A stretch of DNA of 64,000 nt from Escherichia coli. GTDB taxonomy: Bacteria > Pseudomonadota > Gammaproteobacteria > Enterobacterales > Enterobacteriaceae. Within the stretch, counting starts at the first letter, position 1, and each line of letters opens with the position of its first letter. The stretch lies in assembly GCF_044647545.1 (NCBI RefSeq), contig NZ_CP172818.1; one strand, written 5' to 3'. Below, piece by piece: positions 1-58,961 of this stretch. The notes beneath the pieces were generated by a model. The model worked only from the letters and a program-made list of their open reading frames with translations, did no database searches and had not been told where the DNA came from. Position numbers and translations under genes: made by a program.

Positions 1-69
1 AAGGAGGCAGTATGGCAGTTTCAGCAAGAAATCAATTAACCGGAACAGTTACGCAGTAGCAATGGGCGC

Positions 70-390
70 TTGAATGATGAAGTAGAACCGACGCCGCAGG
101 TGTGCAAAACTTGCAATTGTTACACACAGCAGCCAGCAGGCTCTTGGCCGGGAAAAAGGAAAAAAAGGCGCCCCCCCGAAAAAGCCCCCGGGGGGAAACG
201 CGGAAAAGAAAAGCGGGGGGGAAACTCCCCCCCCCCACCCGCTGCGCGGCGCGCGGGCAAACACCCGCGAAGGGCGGGGGGAGCCCCCTCCAAAAAAAAA
301 AAGGGGGGGTTTTAAAATGGGGGGGAAAAAAAAAAAAAAGGAAGGAAAAAAAAACCCCCTAAAAAAAAAACACCAAAAAGGAAAAATTTG
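70..390. other. Anomalous low-complexity tract with long A, G and C homopolymer runs; unlike the rest of the window
   Basis: Direct reading: runs such as a14, c10, g7; the two ORFs across it encode Lys/Arg/Gly/Pro-rich nonsense. Confidence 0.6.
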
Positions 391-412
391 CCGGAGAGTA
401 TGGCTCTCCGGC
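390..412. terminator. GC-rich hairpin (gccggagag / ctctccggc) downstream of ygbA, with T-rich flanks on both strands; putative bidirectional terminator
   Basis: Inverted repeat read directly. Confidence 0.5.
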
Positions 413-16966: not shown

Positions 16967-17290
16967 TTAGCCCAGTAGCCACATAAACAGTGCGCCAAAC
17001 ATAATGCCTACTGTCACCAGGGTGAAAACAATACTGTAGCGTAGCTTTCCGTCCATCAATGAATGCAGCGCAATCCCCACCACTACCGCGACAGGCATCA
17101 GTGCCAGAAAGAAAGGCCAGGTGTAGATAAAGAAGAACAGCGTGTTAGAGCCATAAATCAACATCGGCATCGCCAGCGCAAATAACCATGAGATAAAACC
17201 GACCACGGCACCAGGCAGTGACCATGTGGTTTCTTCATCCTCAGTAAGGCTGTCGTTATTTGTTAGTGTAATGTTATGGCTATTACGCAT
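16967..17290 (-). CDS. ygbE: Inner membrane protein YgbE
   Basis: 107-aa hydrophobic ORF; position. Confidence 0.8.
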   Translation of the reverse strand: MRNSHNITLTNNDSLTEDEETTWSLPGAVVGFISWLFALAMPMLIYGSNTLFFFIYTWPFFLALMPVAVVVGIALHSLMDGKLRYSIVFTLVTVGIMFGALFMWLLG

Positions 17291-21652: not shown

Positions 21653-22418
21653 CGGTTTATCCCCGCTGGCGCGGGGAATCGCCGGAAAATATTCATGATG
21701 GGGGTGGTTATGGCGGTTTATCCCCGCTGGCGCGGGGAATCTCGGGGCCGCCGTGTTCACATTTGCCTAATTTCCCGGTTTATCCCCGCTGGCGCGGGGA
21801 ACTCTATCATAAACGAGGTGAATTTATGGAAACTGTACGGTTTATCCCCGCTGGCGCGGGGAACTCGTTAGTTTTCGAAAAAATTGTTTTCTTACGCTGG
21901 TTTATCCCCGCTGGCGCGGGGAACTCAATTATTGTCGTGGACAAATGCCGGTGTTATTGCGGTTTATCCCCGCTGGCGCGGGGAACTCATTCGAGACAAT
22001 CTCTCAAAATTAATGAAATCGGTTTATCCCCGCTGGCGCGGGGAACTCCAGGTATCAAGAAATAATCGAAGCCTTCATGACGGTTTATCCCCGCTGGCGC
22101 GGGGAACTCAATTGATTGCTGGGTGATATTGGAAAATGTTGCGGTTTATCCCCGCTGGCGCGGGGAACTCCTACCGTACAGATCCTGACCGGATATTATT
22201 TTTTTGCGGTTTATCCCCGCTGGCGCGGGGAACTCCGACGTTCGACGAAATGCGCGATGGCGGTCGGCGGTTTATCCCCGCTGGCGCGGGGAACTCTTCT
22301 GCGTCCCCGATGTCTGGCCCGACTGGTCCGGTTTATCCCCGCTGGCGCGGGGAACTCTATATGACCGGAACACTTCCGCCTGACGTTTGCGGTTTATCCC
22401 CGCTGGCGCGGGGAACTC
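21653..22418 (-). CRISPR. CRISPR array, type I-E repeat (plus strand CGGTTTATCCCCGCTGGCGCGGGGAACTC), 13 repeats and 12 spacers; leader at the high-coordinate end
   Basis: Repeat starts at about 21653, 21714, 21776, 21838, 21898, 21960, 22020, 22081, 22142, 22207, 22268, 22329, 22390; the two leader-distal repeats end GAATCG/GAATCT. Confidence 0.97.
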
Positions 22419-47374: not shown

Positions 47375-47511
47375 GGTTATCCCCGCTGACGCGGGGAACA
47401 TAAGTTCGACAACTTAAAAAATGATAACAAGTCCGGTTTATCCCCGCTGATGCAGGGAACATAATAAAAACTTTAACTAGTTCGTTTATCCCTGTTGTTA
47501 CAAGGAATATT
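47375..47511 (-). CRISPR. Degenerate CRISPR remnant: three decayed type I-E-like repeats
   Basis: ggttatccccgctgacgcggggaacat; cggtttatccccgctgatgcagggaacat; cgtttatccctgttgttacaaggaatat. Confidence 0.75.
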
Positions 47512-47964
47512 AACTACACTCGATGTCTTTAGAATAAAAGACAATACGAATCGCACTTTATCAATTTTCACTTAAAGTATGAACTGGATATCTTTATTCA
47601 TAAGAACTATTCATCAACAGCGTATAGAGGCGGTTATGTAAAACCACTCATTAGCCTCAAAACAAAGACAAACTTCCAGATTTATTACTTAATCAATGAA
47701 TAACAAGCTTAAAAAATACACTGTTATTCTAAAGAAAAAATTAACAGGCATTAATTAATATTAAAAAAAATAATATATTAAAATTTCTTAACGGTTTAAG
47801 GATTATACAAATAACACTTTGATTAAATTTGATTTTTTGTATCGATAATTGTGAACTTATCTGGCATGGAGAACTATTTTGAACATGAGGTGTTATGTGG
47901 ATATGTTGCTTATTACAAGTACAGCTAATATAAAAACTTGAGAAAGAGATAACGGGTTATATGG

Positions 47965-48367
47965 TGGTTCATCCCCGCTGGCGCGGGGAACACGTCTTTT
48001 TGACCGGCCGGTAAATCGTCTGCCTGCGGTTTATCCCCGCTGGCGCGGGGAACACAAACCATTCTCGCAATCAAGGACTATTCCTAGACGGTTTATCCCC
48101 GCTGGCGCGGGGAACACGGTCGCAGGGAATACAAAGCCGTGCATCCTGCTCGGTTTATCCCCGCTGGCGCGGGGAACACTGGCTCTGCAACAGCAGCACT
48201 ATGACCCCGTCGGTTTATCCCCGCTGGCGCGGGGAACACGAAAAGCTTATGATCGTTAATGCCGCAAACACCGGTTTATCCCCGCTGGCGCGGGGAACAC
48301 ATTACACCTATGTGCGAGCGCCCGGTTTTTGCCGCTAGCGGTTTATCCCCGCTGGCGCGGGGAACAC
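47965..48367 (-). CRISPR. Orphan CRISPR array, 7 repeats and 6 spacers, repeat variant ending GAACAC (plus strand CGGTTTATCCCCGCTGGCGCGGGGAACAC)
   Basis: Repeat starts at about 47965, 48027, 48089, 48151, 48211, 48272, 48339; the first repeat is a variant (ggttcatcc). Confidence 0.95.
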
Positions 48368-53641: not shown

Positions 53642-53853
53642 TTAGGTTGAAAAGACGATGGAATAACCAGGACGGGAAAGCAGTATACCCGAACATGACC
53701 TGTGCCACAAACTTTCATTATCCCTCCTCTTCGCCAGCGCACTATTGAAATCAGGAGTGAGAAAATAGCCCCTTTGGGGTAAATGTTTTTGACGCAAATC
53801 AAGCGCTTGTCATTTAAAAAATGACACAAATGGCGCTTGACCGCGTAATTCCC

Positions 53854-54645
53854 TTAGAGATCAATTTCCTGCCGTTTTACCTGTTGCCAGACTTCTTCCA
53901 TTGTTTCGAGGTCAACACCTGTCATTTCCAGTCCACGCGCGGCAACAATACGCTCCACTTCGCGAAAACGACGCTCGAATTTTTCGTTCGCTTTTTGCAA
54001 TGCGATTTCCGCTTTTGTCCCTAAATGACGAGCCAGATTGACCGTGGCAAACAGCAGGTCACCCATTTCCTCCTCCAGTTTAGCCTGGTCGACAACAGCC
54101 TGCTGCGCCTCGTACATCACCTCGTCGATCTCTTCGTAGACTTTATCGACTACCGGACCAAGCGTCGTCCAGTCGAAGCCAACGTTGGCGCAACGTTTCT
54201 GGATTTTTTGCGCACGCATTAAAGCCGGTAAACTACGAGGAATATCATCCAGCGCCGAATGCTGTGCTTTCTGCGCGCGTTCTTCGGTTTTGATTTGCTC
54301 CCAACGGGCGAGCACTTCACTACTGTTTTCGGCAGAACTGTCAGCAAAAACATGCGGATGGCGACGCTCTAATTTATCGCTAATAGCAGCGCAAATATCA
54401 TTAAAGTCAAAGCGCCCTTCTTCCTGAGCCATTTGTGCGTAAAACACCACCTGGAACAGCAGATCGCCCAGTTCACCGCGCAGATCGTCAAAATCTTCAC
54501 GGGCGATGGCGTCCAGCACCTCGTAGGTTTCTTCAAGGGTGTAAGGCGCAATGGTGGCAAATGTCTGCTCTTTATCCCACGGGCAGCCGTTTTCCGGATC
54601 GCGCAGGCGCTGCATAATAGTGAGCAAACGGTCGATTTGATTCAT
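53854..54645 (-). CDS. mazG: Nucleoside triphosphate pyrophosphohydrolase MazG
   Basis: 263-aa ORF; two MazG-type domains. Confidence 0.93.
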   Translation of the reverse strand: MNQIDRLLTIMQRLRDPENGCPWDKEQTFATIAPYTLEETYEVLDAIAREDFDDLRGELGDLLFQVVFYAQMAQEEGRFDFNDICAAISDKLERRHPHVFADSSAENSSEVLARWEQIKTEERAQKAQHSALDDIPRSLPALMRAQKIQKRCANVGFDWTTLGPVVDKVYEEIDEVMYEAQQAVVDQAKLEEEMGDLLFATVNLARHLGTKAEIALQKANEKFERRFREVERIVAARGLEMTGVDLETMEEVWQQVKRQEIDL

Positions 54646-54716
54646 TGAATTGTCCTGAAAATTGCGGGTCTGTCAGGTGGAAACCTGTGACCAGAATAGA
54701 AGTGAGTTAGTAACAC

Positions 54717-55052
54717 CTACCCAATCAGCACGTTAATTTTGGCTTTAATGAGTTGTAATTCCTCTGGGGCAACTGTTCCTTTCTTCGTTGCTCCTCTTGC
54801 CCGCCAGGCGATACTTTTTACCTGATCAGCTAACGCTACGCCATCACGTTCCTGACCGGATAGAACAACTTCGAACGGATATCCTTTTGATTGCGTTGTA
54901 CAAGGAACACACAGACACATACCTGTTTTGTTGTTGTACATGAACGGACTCAGGACAACAGCCGGACGATGTCCGGCTTGCTCGCTACCTTTTGTCGGGT
55001 CAAAATCAACCCAAATCAGATCGCCCGTATCGGGTACGTATCGGCTTACCAT
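54717..55052 (-). CDS. mazF: Type II toxin MazF (ACA-specific mRNA interferase)
   Basis: 111-aa ORF starting [19 protein letters not shown]. Confidence 0.95.
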   Translation of the reverse strand: MVSRYVPDTGDLIWVDFDPTKGSEQAGHRPAVVLSPFMYNNKTGMCLCVPCTTQSKGYPFEVVLSGQERDGVALADQVKSIAWRARGATKKGTVAPEELQLIKAKINVLIG

Positions 55053-55300
55053 TACCAGACTTCCTTATCTTTCGGCTCCCCCCAGTCGATATTCTCGTGG
55101 AGGTTTTCCGGCGTGATGTCGTTGACCAGTTCAGCAAGCGTAAATACGGGCTCTTTACGCACTGGCTCAATAATTAATTTTCCATCCACCAGGTCAATCT
55201 TCACTTCATCATCAATATTCAGATTGAGCGCCTGCATTAACGTAGCCGGGATCCGCACTGCAGGAGAATTTCCCCAACGCTTTACGCTACTGTGGATCAT
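55052..55300 (-). CDS. mazE: Type II antitoxin MazE
   Basis: 82-aa ORF starting [18 protein letters not shown]; 1-bp overlap with mazF. Confidence 0.95.
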
Positions 55301-55320
55301 AACCCTTTCCTCAAACCGCT

Positions 55321-55367
55321 ATCATATGTAGATACAGTATATATCAATCTACATTGTAGATACGAAC
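55321..55367 (-). promoter_or_regulatory. mazEF promoter/operator region with repeated tgtagata motifs and an inverted partner (alternating palindrome)
   Basis: tgtagatacagtatatatcaatctacattgtagatac lies 20–67 nt upstream of the mazE start. Confidence 0.7.
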
Positions 55368-55377
55368 AAGTTTCGGC

Positions 55378-57612
55378 CTAACTCCCGTGCAACCGACGCG
55401 CGTCGATAACATCCGGCACCTGGTTGAGTTTACCCAGCACGCGGCCCAGCACTTGCAGGTTGTAAATCTCAATGGTCATGTCGATGGTCGCCAGTTGCTG
55501 TTTGGTGTCGCTACGGCTGGCAACGCCAAGTACGTTCACCTTCTCGTTGGCGAGAATGGTCGTGATATCACGTAACAACCCACTACGATCATTAGCCACC
55601 ACGCGGACCACCAGCGAATATCCGGCGGAGTAGCTCTCGCCCCATACCGCGTCAACAATGCGTTCTGGCGCATGGGAGCGCAGTTCCGCCAGTTGTTCGC
55701 AATCGGCGCGGTGTACTGAAATACCGCGTCCCTGGGTAATGAAGCCGACAATCTCATCTCCAGGAATCGGCTGGCAGCAGCGCGCGATGTGGTGCATCAG
55801 GTTACCGACCCCTTCTACCACCACACGACCGTTATCTTTACTGCGGTTTTGCGGCGTGTAGCTTTTTTGCTGAAGCTGTTTCAGCGCGGCGGCATCCTGC
55901 TCTTCGGCACTCGGCTTATTAAATTGCGATTGCAGGAAGTTCACCATCTGATTGAGACGGATATCCCCGCCACCAATTGCCGCCAGCAACTCGTCGACAT
56001 CATTGAAGTTGTAACGCGGCAGCAGATGTTTTTCTGCTTCTTTCAGGCTGATCCCCAGATGTTCCAGCTCGTCGTCAAGGATTTGCCGCCCAGCCAGAAT
56101 GTTTTTGTCACGGTCCTGTTTACGGAACCAGGCGTGAATTTTCGAACGCCCACGGCTGGTTGTGACGTAACCGAGATTTGGGTTTAACCAGTCACGGCTG
56201 GGGTTCGGCTGTTTCTGGGTGATAATTTCAATCTGGTCGCCCATCTGCAGCTGGTAGGTGAACGGCACAATGCGCCCGCCAATTTTTGCCCCGATGCAGC
56301 GGTGTCCGACATCACTGTGGATGTGGTAAGCGAAGTCCAGCGGTGTTGATCCCGCAGGCAAATCAACGACATCACCTTTCGGCGTAAAGACGTACACCCG
56401 GTCGTCAAAGACCTGGCTGCGTACTTCGTCGAGCATTTCGCCGGAATCAGCCATCTCTTCCTGCCACGCAATCAGTTTACGCAGCCAGGCAATTCGGTCT
56501 TCATGTCCCGAACGTGCGCCGCCAGCTGCCGCGCCCTCTTTATATTTCCAGTGCGCAGCAACACCCAACTCTGCATCTTCATGCATCTGTTTGGTGCGGA
56601 TTTGGATCTCAACGGTTTTGCCACCCGGCCCCAGAACCACGGTATGAATAGACTGATAACCGTTTGGTTTCGGGTTAGCGACGTAATCGTCGAACTCATC
56701 CGGCAGGTGGCGATAGTGAGTGTGCACTATCCCCAGTGCGGCATAACAATCCTGTAAACGCTCGGCGACAATACGTACCGCACGCACATCAAACAGCTCA
56801 TCGAAGGCGAGGTTCTTTTTCTGCATTTTGCGCCAGATGCTGTAGATGTGTTTCGGTCGACCATACACTTCAGCTTTAACGCCTTCAGCTTTCATCTCAG
56901 CGCGCAGATGGCCGACAAACTCTTCGATATAGTGTTCGCGGTCGAGACGGCGTTCATGCAGCAGTTTTGCGATGCGTTTGTATTCGGTCGGGTGGAGATA
57001 ACGGAAGCAGTAATCTTCCAGCTCCCATTTCAGTTGCCCAATCCCAAGACGGTTCGCCAACGGCGCGTAGATATTGGTGCACTCTTTTGCCGCCAGTACG
57101 CGTTCATCTTCCGGCGCGTCTTTTACTTCGCGCAGATGAGCAATACGCTCTGCCAGTTTGATGACCACGCAGCGGAAATCATCGACCATCGCCAATAACA
57201 TCCGGCGAACGTTATCGACCTGTTCGGAGGAAACAGAATCGGTATGCGTCGCTTTCAGCTGGCGGATCGCCGCCATATCACGCACGCCGTGAATAAGGTT
57301 AACGACCGACTTACCGACGCTCTCACGCAGCACATCTTCGCTGACTACGTTGGCATCCGCCAGAGGGAACAGCAGCGCCGCCCGCAGCGTGTCAATGTCC
57401 ATACTTAATGTCGAGAGGATCTCCACCATCTCAACACCACGCCACAATAACAGACTGGCATCCGGATGCCCCTGCGTCTGTTGCAGACAATATGCCCAGG
57501 TTTCGGCTAAGCACTCACACGACTTCTGGCTGGTAATACCCAGACTTGCGATCCATTTTTCCGGATCAAATTCACCAGCCTTATTGATATGTGCACTTCT
57601 TACCGCAACCAT
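55378..57612 (-). CDS. relA: GTP pyrophosphokinase ((p)ppGpp synthetase I)
   Basis: 744-aa ORF. Confidence 0.96.
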   Translation of the reverse strand: MVAVRSAHINKAGEFDPEKWIASLGITSQKSCECLAETWAYCLQQTQGHPDASLLLWRGVEMVEILSTLSMDIDTLRAALLFPLADANVVSEDVLRESVGKSVVNLIHGVRDMAAIRQLKATHTDSVSSEQVDNVRRMLLAMVDDFRCVVIKLAERIAHLREVKDAPEDERVLAAKECTNIYAPLANRLGIGQLKWELEDYCFRYLHPTEYKRIAKLLHERRLDREHYIEEFVGHLRAEMKAEGVKAEVYGRPKHIYSIWRKMQKKNLAFDELFDVRAVRIVAERLQDCYAALGIVHTHYRHLPDEFDDYVANPKPNGYQSIHTVVLGPGGKTVEIQIRTKQMHEDAELGVAAHWKYKEGAAAGGARSGHEDRIAWLRKLIAWQEEMADSGEMLDEVRSQVFDDRVYVFTPKGDVVDLPAGSTPLDFAYHIHSDVGHRCIGAKIGGRIVPFTYQLQMGDQIEIITQKQPNPSRDWLNPNLGYVTTSRGRSKIHAWFRKQDRDKNILAGRQILDDELEHLGISLKEAEKHLLPRYNFNDVDELLAAIGGGDIRLNQMVNFLQSQFNKPSAEEQDAAALKQLQQKSYTPQNRSKDNGRVVVEGVGNLMHHIARCCQPIPGDEIVGFITQGRGISVHRADCEQLAELRSHAPERIVDAVWGESYSAGYSLVVRVVANDRSGLLRDITTILANEKVNVLGVASRSDTKQQLATIDMTIEIYNLQVLGRVLGKLNQVPDVIDARRLHGS

Positions 57613-57659
57613 CGTCCTCTCCTTTAGGGACCAGACCTGCCGAAATCGGCAAATCGCAA

Positions 57660-58961
57660 CTATTTAACGCGCGAGAAAAGTACCATCGATTCCAGATGTC
57701 CCGTGTGTGGGAACATATCCAGCATCGCCAGTCGCGCAATGGTATATCCTGCTTTTAATAACGCTTCGCTATCCCGAGCCAGCGTTGCAGGGTTACAGGA
57801 TACATAAACTATACGAATAGGTTCCAGTTTTATAATTTGCTGCATAACACCTGCGGCACCTGCTCGCGCCGGGTCCAACAACACTTTATCGAAGCCGTTT
57901 TTCGCCCACGGCTGCTTTGTGACATCTTCTTCAAGATTTTCGTGATAAAACGTCACATTGTGTAAGCCATTAAGACGCGCATTCTGCTGGCCTTTTTCAA
58001 CCAGCGCCGGAACGCCTTCTACACCGACCACACTGGCAGCTTGTGTCGCCAATGGCAGTGTAAAGTTGCCCATACCGCAGAACAGATCCAGTACGCGATC
58101 TTCAGGTTGCACATCCAGCCATTCCAACGCACGCGCTACCATTTTTTGGTTCACACCCGCATTGACCTGAATAAAATCGCGCGGGCTAAAAGTTAAGCGC
58201 AACCCATTTGAGTCATACCAGGGCATCTCACCAGAGACGGTTTCGAGTATCTCACTATCGGGGGCGAGATACAGATCCAGTCCTTCAGAATGCGAAAAGC
58301 ATTCCAGTTTTTCGCGATCTGCCGAACTTAGCGGTGCGGTATGGCGCAAAATCATTAGCGTGCCGCTGGTTGCCTGTACCAGTTCAACATGACCAAGATG
58401 GCGCATAGCTTGTAAGCTGCCCAGGCATGCCCTGACTTTGGGCAGCAATGCTTCAAGTTGGGGCACTAAAATGGGGCATTGTTTAACGTCGACAATGTCA
58501 CTGGAGCCCGCTTTGCGAAACCCCATCTGAAGTTGCTGTGTTTTCGGTAAGTAGTTCAGACTTAAACGCGCGCGACGGCGATAGCCCCAGGGAACATCGG
58601 CGATCACTTCAGAGACTTCGTGTTTCATTAATCGGGCGAGTGCCGCACTTTTGCTTCGCTGCTGTAAATCCACACTGGCGTGTTGTTGCTGACAGCCGCC
58701 GCATACGCCAAAATGAGGACAGCGTGGCGTTTCGCGTTCCGGACTATCGCTTAACCGGCGTACGACTTTAGCGCGGGCATACTGTTTTTTATCTTCAGTA
58801 ACAGTAACTTCCGCGTTTTCCTGCGGCAATAATCCGGGGATAAATAATGTTTTGCCGTTATGTCGCGCCACACCCTGACCAAAAGAGTCGAGGTCGTTGA
58901 CTGAAACGGTTATGATCTGACGCGTCGTCGTGCGTCGTTTTGCAGAGTAGAATTGCGCCAT
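57660..58961 (-). CDS. rlmD: 23S rRNA (uracil1939-C5)-methyltransferase RlmD (RumA)
   Basis: 433-aa ORF; Fe-S Cys cluster near the N-terminus; C-terminal methyltransferase domain. Confidence 0.93.

Follow-up and report, generated by a model that had tools for sequence, protein, structure and literature searches.

The chromosomal mazEF (chpA) toxin-antitoxin cassette and its operator between relA and mazG in an Escherichia coli genome

Described MazEF systems and the layout of the locus

The mazEF locus was the first toxin-antitoxin system to be described on a chromosome, and the toxicity of MazF, its neutralisation by MazE, and the proteolytic lability of MazE are established for the K-12 proteins. 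MazF dimers cleave single-stranded RNA at ACA, their own mRNA included. A MazE dimer uses its disordered C-terminal tail to neutralise MazF, forming a MazF2-MazE2-MazF2 complex, and ClpAP and Lon remove MazE. The operator is bound by the N-terminal AbrB-type domain of MazE (W9, N11, R16); MazF tightens this binding when the two proteins are in balance and weakens it when MazF is in excess. In K-12, mazEF (chpA; b2783/b2782) lies between relA (b2784) and mazG (b2781) and has an 'alternating palindrome' cab operator, mazG is co-transcribed with mazEF, and read-through from relA is possible. E. coli has a second chromosomal MazEF-family pair with the same folds, chpB (chpS/chpBK). The plasmid modules parD (kis/kid, R1) and pem (pemI/pemK, R100), and the mazEF homologue of pT82A, likewise have an AbrB-type antitoxin gene overlapping a PemK/MazF toxin gene and a palindromic operator upstream, but they are plasmid-borne and lack the relA or mazG context.

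We analysed a 64-kb stretch of E. coli DNA (hereafter the window) in which relA, mazE, mazF, and mazG lie on one strand (Table 1). This locus is almost certainly the type II toxin-antitoxin cassette mazEF (chpA) in its canonical E. coli chromosomal form; it sits between relA and mazG and has its own autoregulated promoter-operator. The open reading frames uphold the gene order given in a first-pass annotation of the window, although the region that it assigned to all four genes, 54717-57612, contains only mazF, mazE, and relA, with mazG just outside. The 1-bp overlap of the mazEF pair that it described is present as well: the mazE TAA (55054-55052) and the mazF ATG (55052-50) share the single base 55052, read 5'-TGGTAATGG-3' (TAATG). 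The antitoxin gene is thus directly 5' of the toxin gene and overlaps it on one strand, which is the arrangement of a type II MazEF (chpA) system. A 77-bp spacer separates the relA stop from the mazE ATG.

Gene order, strand, the TAATG overlap, and the length of the relA–mazE spacer are all as in K-12, whereas the window has an additional G behind the mazF stop, which makes its mazF–mazG spacer one base longer. Several E. coli chromosomes are 100% identical to the window over this region, and RefSeq names the same genes relA, mazE, mazF, and mazG in them. The chromosome of FDAARGOS_497 is collinear with the window only in part, as the left end departs, and its coordinates were used within 53800-57700 only. 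The locus, its operator, the protein structures, the antisense RNA, and the patchy distribution have all been published already; nothing in them is new, and as a discovery the locus carries little weight.

Table 1. Features of the mazEF locus, in positions of the window
Feature	Position	Strand	Assignment
relA	55378-57612	minus	Ribosome-dependent (p)ppGpp synthetase I, 744 aa
aMEF (ameF, b4844)	55012-55411	plus	Projected from K-12 annotation 2911051-2911450(+)
Operator site c GTATCTACAATGTAGATTG	55345-55363	minus	Exact match to published oligo; perfect 7+1+7 palindrome ATCTACA-A-TGTAGAT, 55347-55361
Operator site a TTGATATATACTGT	55334-55347	minus	Exact match to published oligo; ATATAT core 55339-55344
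Operator site b ATATACTGTATCTACATAT	55324-55342	minus	Exact match to published oligo; downstream arm ATCTACAT 55326-55333
P2 (stronger), -10 TATACT	55336-55341	minus	Putative; expected start ~55329
P3 (weaker), -10 TATGAT	55321-55326	minus	Putative; expected start ~55314-55316
Shine-Dalgarno region GAGGAAAGG	55303-55311	minus	Putative, from direct reading; 5' of mazE ATG
mazE (chpAI)	55052-55300	minus	Labile antitoxin and AbrB-type repressor, 82 aa
mazF (chpAK)	54717-55052	minus	ACA-specific endoribonuclease toxin, 111 aa
mazF–mazG spacer	54646-54716	minus	71 bp, mazF stop to mazG ATG
mazG	53854-54645	minus	Nucleoside triphosphate pyrophosphohydrolase, 263 aa

Identities of the encoded proteins

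Pfam assigns the four products to PemK_toxin, MazE_antitoxin, RelA_SpoT/HD_4/TGS/ACT, and MazG, and all four score far over the cut-offs of the NCBIfam equivalogs for MazF, MazE, RelA, and MazG. For MazF, the match to PemK_toxin (PF02452) is at 5e-24 (85 bits) and that to equivalog NF007386 reaches 226 bits (cut-off 120). The protein fits the toxin type of the PemK/MazF (SH3-like barrel) family and is orthologous to E. coli MazF, sharing 110 of its 111 residues with PDB entries 3NFC, 5CK9, and 1UB4. The sole change, M9T, is a natural allele, and MazF of the window is identical to that of UTI89. Direct reading of the translation places E24, R29, and T52, the catalytic and substrate-binding residues of MazF, in the protein. 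A MazF E24A variant is reported to be inactive (Nikolic 2018), and the 9 ACA sites in the mazF coding sequence and 2 in mazE agree with the counts in the same study and are identical to those of K-12.

MazE matches MazE_antitoxin (PF04014) at 3.5e-14 and NF007312 at 196 bits (cut-off 113). All 82 residues are those of PDB 1MVF and of 1UB4 chain C, and the N-terminal domain matches 2MRN/2MRU. Its N-terminal AbrB/MazE swapped-hairpin DNA-binding domain, followed by a C-terminal toxin-binding tail, fits the antitoxin type. The DNA-contact residues named in PMC4333400 and PMC4803016 (K7, R8, W9, N11, and R16) were all found on reading the translation. Since crystal and NMR structures of MazE and MazF have already been solved, for sequences identical to those of the window or one residue off, any question of whether the MazF fold or the AbrB-type fold of MazE is absent is moot.

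The product of relA scores 1678 bits against NF008124 (cut-off 728) over its full length and 472 bits against the SpoT model NF008303, under the cut-off of 947, which identifies it as RelA and not bifunctional SpoT; its Pfam domains are HD_4, RelA_SpoT, TGS, RelA_AH_RIS, and ACT_4. MazG matches PF03819 at 1.3e-39 in two stretches (tandem domains), TIGR00444 at 418 bits, and NF007113 at 370 bits (cut-off 208). Pfam, the NCBIfam equivalogs, the solved structures, and the RefSeq annotation therefore agree on the gene identities that had been proposed from the sequence.

The other members of the family are more distant. Against the ChpB and ChpS equivalogs, the window proteins score 55 bits (cut-off 129) and 35 bits (cut-off 101); these scores lie far below the cut-offs, so the locus is chpA/mazEF and a chpB identity was rejected. 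Kid matches MazF of the window at 7.8e-09 only. The pT82A homologues are 70% (MazF) and 46% (MazE) identical and keep W9, N11, and R16. Position 9 of MazF is variable, with Ser in a plasmid homologue, and the operator is unchanged in the window.

Relative to K-12, MazE and RelA are identical, RelA despite 58 nucleotide differences. MazF is one residue off through M9T, and MazG has one amino acid change, R181Q. The nucleotide differences are synonymous in 5 of 5 cases in mazE, 5 of 6 in mazF, and 58 of 58 in relA, a pattern that points to purifying selection.

Operator, promoters, and antisense RNA

The 77-bp spacer between relA and mazE carries two direct copies of TGTAGATAC and a single inverted one, ATCTACAT. 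On the plus strand, the direct copies of TGTAGATA(C) occupy 55327-55335 and 55355-55363, 28 bp apart. The inverted copy at 55347-55354 forms an 8-nt inverted repeat with 55326-55333, across a gap of 13 nt, and a 7+1+7 palindrome with 55355-55361. These coordinates confirm the direct and inverted tgtagata motifs that the first-pass annotation had reported upstream of mazEF. Its suggestion that they match the known MazE/MazEF operator also holds, as the oligos c, a, and b, which are the MazE-binding DNA of Zorzini et al. 2015 by ITC, EMSA, and NMR (PMC4333400), are present base for base and are the same in K-12. Secondary accounts use the letters a, b, and c in slightly differing senses, either for arms of the alternating palindrome or for the three ITC oligos. 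Site a is the DNA used in the MazE–DNA model, PDB 2MRU; its ATATAT core is a known feature that the earlier annotation did not mention. Judged by the sequence of the bound oligos, the block at 55324-55363 would constitute the autoregulatory operator, and the element that an earlier reader had recognised from raw sequence alone is a real one.

The tgtagata repeats might instead reflect chance or the structure of an AT-rich spacer, such as a relA terminator, with no protein-binding operator involved. The spacer is indeed AT-rich (36% GC), the window has one further copy of the 8-mer, at 17122, and 6 of 100 shuffles contained it at least three times in 64 kb. Finding direct and inverted copies together within 77 bp is a different matter, however: a direct repeat of at least 9 nt together with an inverted repeat of at least 8 nt appeared in just 1 of 5000 mononucleotide shuffles of the spacer. 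Among 6393 sliding 77-nt segments of the 64 kb, the same repeat architecture was found only in the spacer and in a low-complexity artefact at ~150-420. The block 55324-55363 is also invariant in five lineages (the window, K-12, UTI89, O157:H7, and an avian strain) while its flanks vary, the only spacer SNPs among them being at 55370, 55366, 55320, and 55318. The 46%-identical MazE of pT82A has a site-c-type 7+1+7 palindrome, ATCAACA-A-TGTTGAT, that carries a symmetric double change (ATCAACAATGTTGAT) and lies about as far from the ATG, although that plasmid combines a single palindrome with (ATAAACAC)n tandem repeats in contrast to the c-a-b triple site of the window. In genomes that lack mazEF, a different, GC-rich hairpin stands in this position. 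The spacer sequence is that of the oligos bound by MazE, and these published binding data refute the reading of the repeats as chance or structure, which we rejected and whose probability we regard as negligible.

According to published descriptions, the palindrome lies ~10 bp 5' of the promoter (PMC4333400), and P2 and P3 are 13 nt apart within the operator (PMC4803016); the b arm overlaps P2, and a FIS site is located upstream of P2/P3. The -10 hexamers in Table 1 are putative assignments that are consistent with these descriptions. A consensus scan for promoters and terminators returned promoter-like sites no more often than in shuffles and did not call the published P2 or P3, and we therefore only infer the positions of the two hexamers.

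An antisense RNA, aMEF, modulates the levels of mazE and mazEF transcripts and of their proteins (PMC8749433). It is a known feature of the locus that was absent from the first-pass annotation. We projected it onto the window from the collinear K-12 region, to which mazF–relA aligns without indels at a constant offset of 51960. The projected RNA spans the 5' end of mazF, the whole of mazE, the operator, and the final 34 nt of relA; an Rfam search for aMEF at a permissive E-value gave zero family matches. Relative to K-12, three synonymous SNPs (54945, 54963, and 54975) fall within the 75-bp aMEF promoter fragment.

Two further differences from K-12, at 55366 and 55370, are located just 5' of site c, where -35 or FIS elements are expected. 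None of the differences between the window and K-12 touches a known functional residue or binding site, and it is very unlikely that the window allele regulates or acts measurably differently. Any such difference may arise through altered FIS/-35 usage, antisense transcription, or MazF stability.

Distribution of mazEF and its place beside relA and mazG

We found mazEF at the relA–mazG site in 4418 of the 5425 complete E. coli genomes matching the region (~81%). In the other 1007 of 5425 (19%), relA and mazG are separated by 95 bp without mazEF, and a search for mazEF elsewhere in these 1007 genomes yielded zero DNA-level matches even with blastn at word size 11. A known caveat can thus be given a number: roughly a fifth of complete E. 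coli genomes carry relA–mazG but no mazEF. Nissle 1917 belongs to this group and has intact relA and mazG. In the empty allele, ~55 bp with a 12-bp-stem hairpin replaces the ~700-bp operator–mazE–mazF block. The 104-nt RNA that was folded, running from the end of relA through the 95-bp spacer, has an MFE of -33.3 kcal/mol (z -3.8). In such alleles (e.g., Nissle 1917), relA, mazG, and the outer flanks are at least 98% identical to the window, and homology resumes ~35-55 nt 5' of the mazG ATG. From these comparisons we infer that mazEF is probably an accessory insertion of the mobile type and that the relA–mazG operon around it functions in its absence, a view that is also stated in the review PMC7167474. 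The accessory status of mazEF is known but had not been part of the first-pass annotation.

We found MazE relatives on 598 plasmid records, of which 261 are conjugative. Genes for defence and addiction typically show such plasmid-borne relatives and a patchy distribution, and T4 Alt ADP-ribosylates MazF (cited in PMC4803016), which would be in keeping with a cassette selected mainly for phage defence, by abortive infection or by growth arrest once a phage shuts down host expression, with the relA adjacency incidental. We consider this account quite unlikely. MazF, MazE, and MazG have no match among the 5027 models of PADLOC-DB v2, which places none of them in its catalogued anti-phage systems, and no phage or mobile-element genes were seen flanking mazEF within the 64-kb window. 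Nothing in the sequence tells defence from plain addiction or selfish persistence.

Beyond its identity as the canonical mazEF cassette, the position of the locus between relA and mazG raises the question of function. The first-pass annotation had described the synthetase, the toxin-antitoxin pair, and MazG as linked. In its strongest form, this reading makes relA, mazEF, and mazG one integrated stringent-response module whose gene order is a selected circuit: ppGpp made by RelA stops mazEF transcription, MazE decays, and MazF is freed, while MazG lowers (p)ppGpp and is itself inhibited by MazEF. This is reportedly the programmed cell death model of Aizenman 1996 and Gross 2006. The genes are adjacent on one strand with short spacers, there are reports of mazEFG co-transcription and of a relA–mazEF unit, including in PMC7167474 and PMC4803016, and the latter review describes the circuit. 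The physical and transcriptional link thus stands. Functional coupling, however, is contested (PMC7167474; bioRxiv 10.1101/048728) and receives no support from the 19% of genomes in which relA and mazG are intact and 95 bp apart without mazEF. An obligate relA–mazEF–mazG module would call for mazEF at every relA–mazG junction of the species, and this linkage is not conserved. The 1007 empty sites therefore weaken the case for an obligate ppGpp–toxin–MazG module, a point already in the literature, and because about a fifth of the genomes lack mazEF, adjacency is no proof of shared function. The cell-death phenotype has been irreproducible, and the strains were relA-deficient with a mazG deletion (bioRxiv 10.1101/048728). 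PMC6850273 casts doubt, for some homologues at least, on whether MazG hydrolyses magic-spot nucleotides. Overall, we regard the integrated module as unlikely. PMC7167474 denies a functional link and describes relA–mazG as an undisturbed operon where mazEF is missing; the same review places a parDE system at this position in Salmonella.

The relA–mazEF–mazG locus

The relA–mazE–mazF–mazG arrangement with a palindrome picked out by the first-pass annotation is the textbook E. coli mazEF locus with its published operator; the observation was confirmed and its interpretation is supported. The locus is already known and does not represent a new system. The range assigned to it, 54717-57612, holds mazF, mazE, and relA, with mazG just beyond it. 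The mazE stop and mazF start codons overlap by one base as described (TGG-TAA/ATG-G), sharing the A at 55052. Compared to K-12, an extra G directly follows the mazF stop codon at 54716, and the mazF–mazG spacer is 70 bp in that strain.

Features of the relA–mazG region of the window
Feature	Position	Strand	Length or sequence	Basis
rlmD	57660-58961	minus		six-frame ORF listing and direct reading
relA	55378-57612	minus	744 aa	six-frame ORF listing and direct reading
relA–mazE spacer			77 bp	direct reading
Operator site c	55345-55363		GTATCTACAATGTAGATTG	exact match to oligo (PMC4333400)
Operator site a	55334-55347		TTGATATATACTGT	exact match to oligo (PMC4333400)
Site a core	55339-55344		ATATAT	modelled in complex with MazE (PMC4333400, PMC4803016)
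Operator site b	55324-55342		ATATACTGTATCTACATAT	exact match to oligo (PMC4333400)
mazE	55052-55300	minus	82 aa	six-frame ORF listing and direct reading
mazF	54717-55052	minus	111 aa	six-frame ORF listing and direct reading
mazF–mazG spacer			71 bp	direct reading
mazG	53854-54645	minus	263 aa	six-frame ORF listing and direct reading
pyrG, eno	further downstream of mazG	minus-strand gene run

Of 5426 complete E. coli genomes, 5425 contain the 3.9-kb region, annotated as relA, mazE, mazF, and mazG, and several E. coli chromosomes match it at 100% identity. Pfam matches comprise PemK_toxin, MazE_antitoxin, the complete RelA domain set, and MazG, and the NCBIfam equivalog cut-offs for all four proteins were exceeded by wide margins. 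The alternative identities ChpB/ChpS and SpoT were rejected on NCBIfam scores below their cut-offs. MazE is identical to PDB entries 1MVF and 1UB4 at 82/82 residues, and MazF to 3NFC, 5CK9, and 1UB4 at 110/111. Because both sequences match solved structures, absence of a MazF or AbrB fold cannot be invoked against the assignment.

The sole MazF difference from these entries, M9T, is a natural allele shared with UTI89 MazF; this position is Ser in a plasmid homologue. The nucleotide differences from K-12 are synonymous in mazE (5/5), mazF (5/6), and relA (58/58), and these genes appear to be under purifying selection. A functional effect of the window strain's minor allelic differences, the sole candidate for novelty, is unlikely.

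Operator, promoters, and antisense RNA

The plus strand carries TGTAGATAC twice, at 55327-55335 and 55355-55363, and ATCTACAT at 55347-55354 is an inverted copy of this motif that pairs with the former across a 13-nt gap and with the latter across a 1-nt gap. The coding strand reads ATCTACA-A-TGTAGAT-TGATATATACTGT-ATCTACAT, in which the middle arm is able to pair with the upstream or the downstream arm. In our own reading, based on secondary accounts, this three-arm layout would correspond to the "alternating palindrome," the literature name for the mazEF operator (PMC4803016). A direct repeat of at least 9 nt together with an inverted repeat of at least 8 nt arose in 1 of 5000 shuffles of the relA–mazE spacer, and the only other occurrence of the pattern across all 64 kb of the window is a low-complexity artefact close to the left end; the arrangement is therefore not due to chance.

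The direct and inverted tgtagata motifs had been noted as consistent with the known MazE/MazEF operator, and this holds: the three oligos (c, a, and b) used by Zorzini et al. 2015 for ITC, EMSA, and NMR (PMC4333400) are all found exactly in the window. The 51-nt "cab" oligo has two mismatches, both terminal, one of which also mismatches K-12. Across the window, K-12, UTI89, O157:H7, and an avian isolate, the block 55324-55363 is unchanged, and the flanking positions 55370, 55366, 55320, and 55318 vary.

A homologue on plasmid pT82A, with MazF 70% and MazE 46% identical to those of the window and MazE W9, N11, and R16 kept, carries ATCAACA-A-TGTTGAT 58-72 nt 5' of the start codon, which differs from site c by a symmetric T>A/A>T change. 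Such a change is what a palindrome bound by a dimer should show, and it further supports the operator assignment. Unlike the chromosomal c-a-b layout, the plasmid upstream region combines this site-c-like palindrome (ATCAACAATGTTGAT) with approximately five tandem 8-bp units (ATAAACAC).

Inside the operator, promoters P2 and P3 are separated by 13 nt, with a FIS site upstream (PMC4803016). Candidate -10 hexamers, TATACT at 55336-55341 and TATGAT at 55321-55326, agree with secondary descriptions of the P2/P3 region (including PMC4333400). A generic promoter scan of the sequence did not pick up the P2/P3 -10 hexamers. The antisense RNA aMEF, annotated in K-12 and characterized in PMC8749433, projects to 55012-55411 on the plus strand, and its 75-bp promoter fragment has three synonymous differences from K-12. 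MazF acts on its own mRNA, cutting it at ACA (Nikolic et al. 2018); the ACA sites in the window number nine in mazF and two in mazE, as given in that study.

Presence and absence of mazEF

The proposed linkage of relA, mazEF, and mazG stands physically and transcriptionally, but functional evidence for it is weak. A 701-bp query spanning mazF, mazE, and the operator matched only 4418 genomes, sensitive blastn included. The remaining 1007 of 5425 complete genomes, such as Nissle 1917, lack mazEF and the operator and have relA and mazG at no less than 98% identity, 95 bp apart. By alignment, the cassette begins directly after the relA stop codon and ends approximately 35-55 nt upstream of the mazG start. 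In its place, the empty allele carries sequence that includes a hairpin with a 12-bp stem (MFE -33.3 kcal/mol, z -3.8, for a folded 104-nt RNA). In Nissle (L003, 1047-1141) and PRO_A-1551 (L004), the 95-bp spacer corresponds to window 54680-55377, and the hairpin stem GCUGGAUAUGGC/GCCGUAUCCAGC is followed by a short U-run and then mazG.

mazEF has been described as an accessory insertion for which no functional connection with the neighboring genes has been demonstrated, and a parDE system occupies the relA–mazG spacer in Salmonella (PMC7167474). The absence counts, the empty-allele structure, and the plasmid relatives all match this view; presence/absence was known qualitatively from the same review, and 1007/5425 is new merely as a number. 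MazE-family genes are frequent among plasmids, with 598 records, of which 261 are conjugative. The pT82A homologue (NZ_CP046026.1; L005, 1929-2110) has a hok/gef gene on one side and, on the other, a parA/parG partition locus. The 2020 review names UTI89 as a strain without these TA systems at relA–mazG, whereas RefSeq UTI89 has mazE and mazF there (NC_007946.1 3065213-3065796, L006), with a MazF sequence identical to that of the window. The programmed-cell-death reading of mazEF is contested (bioRxiv 10.1101/048728). Neither MazE nor MazF matched a PADLOC-DB v2 model.

Observations elsewhere in the window and in other genomes

At window 50-400, a TOBE-domain gene that is intact in E. coli FDAARGOS_497 decays to frameshifts and then to homopolymer-rich sequence (AAAAAGGAAAAAAAGGCGCCCCCCCGAAAAA..., GGGGGGAAACTCCCCCCCCCC), with normal sequence restarting near 385 at the ygbA-side hairpin. 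This disorder resembles an artefact of sequencing or assembly in the source record rather than biology. Two type I-E CRISPR arrays, at 21653-22416 and 47434-48365, share the repeat CGGTTTATCCCCGCTGGCGCGGGGAAC, with 13 copies in one and 8 in the other, counting degenerate copies; cas3–cas2e genes adjoin the first array in a related genome. In the laboratory strain NZ_CP018801.1 (971193-976428), an IS2-family element interrupts relA, which makes this a relA1-type allele. The wastewater isolate NZ_CM129852.1 matches only from mazE onward and has the locus divided between two places, a pattern suggestive of a disrupted mazF or mazG.
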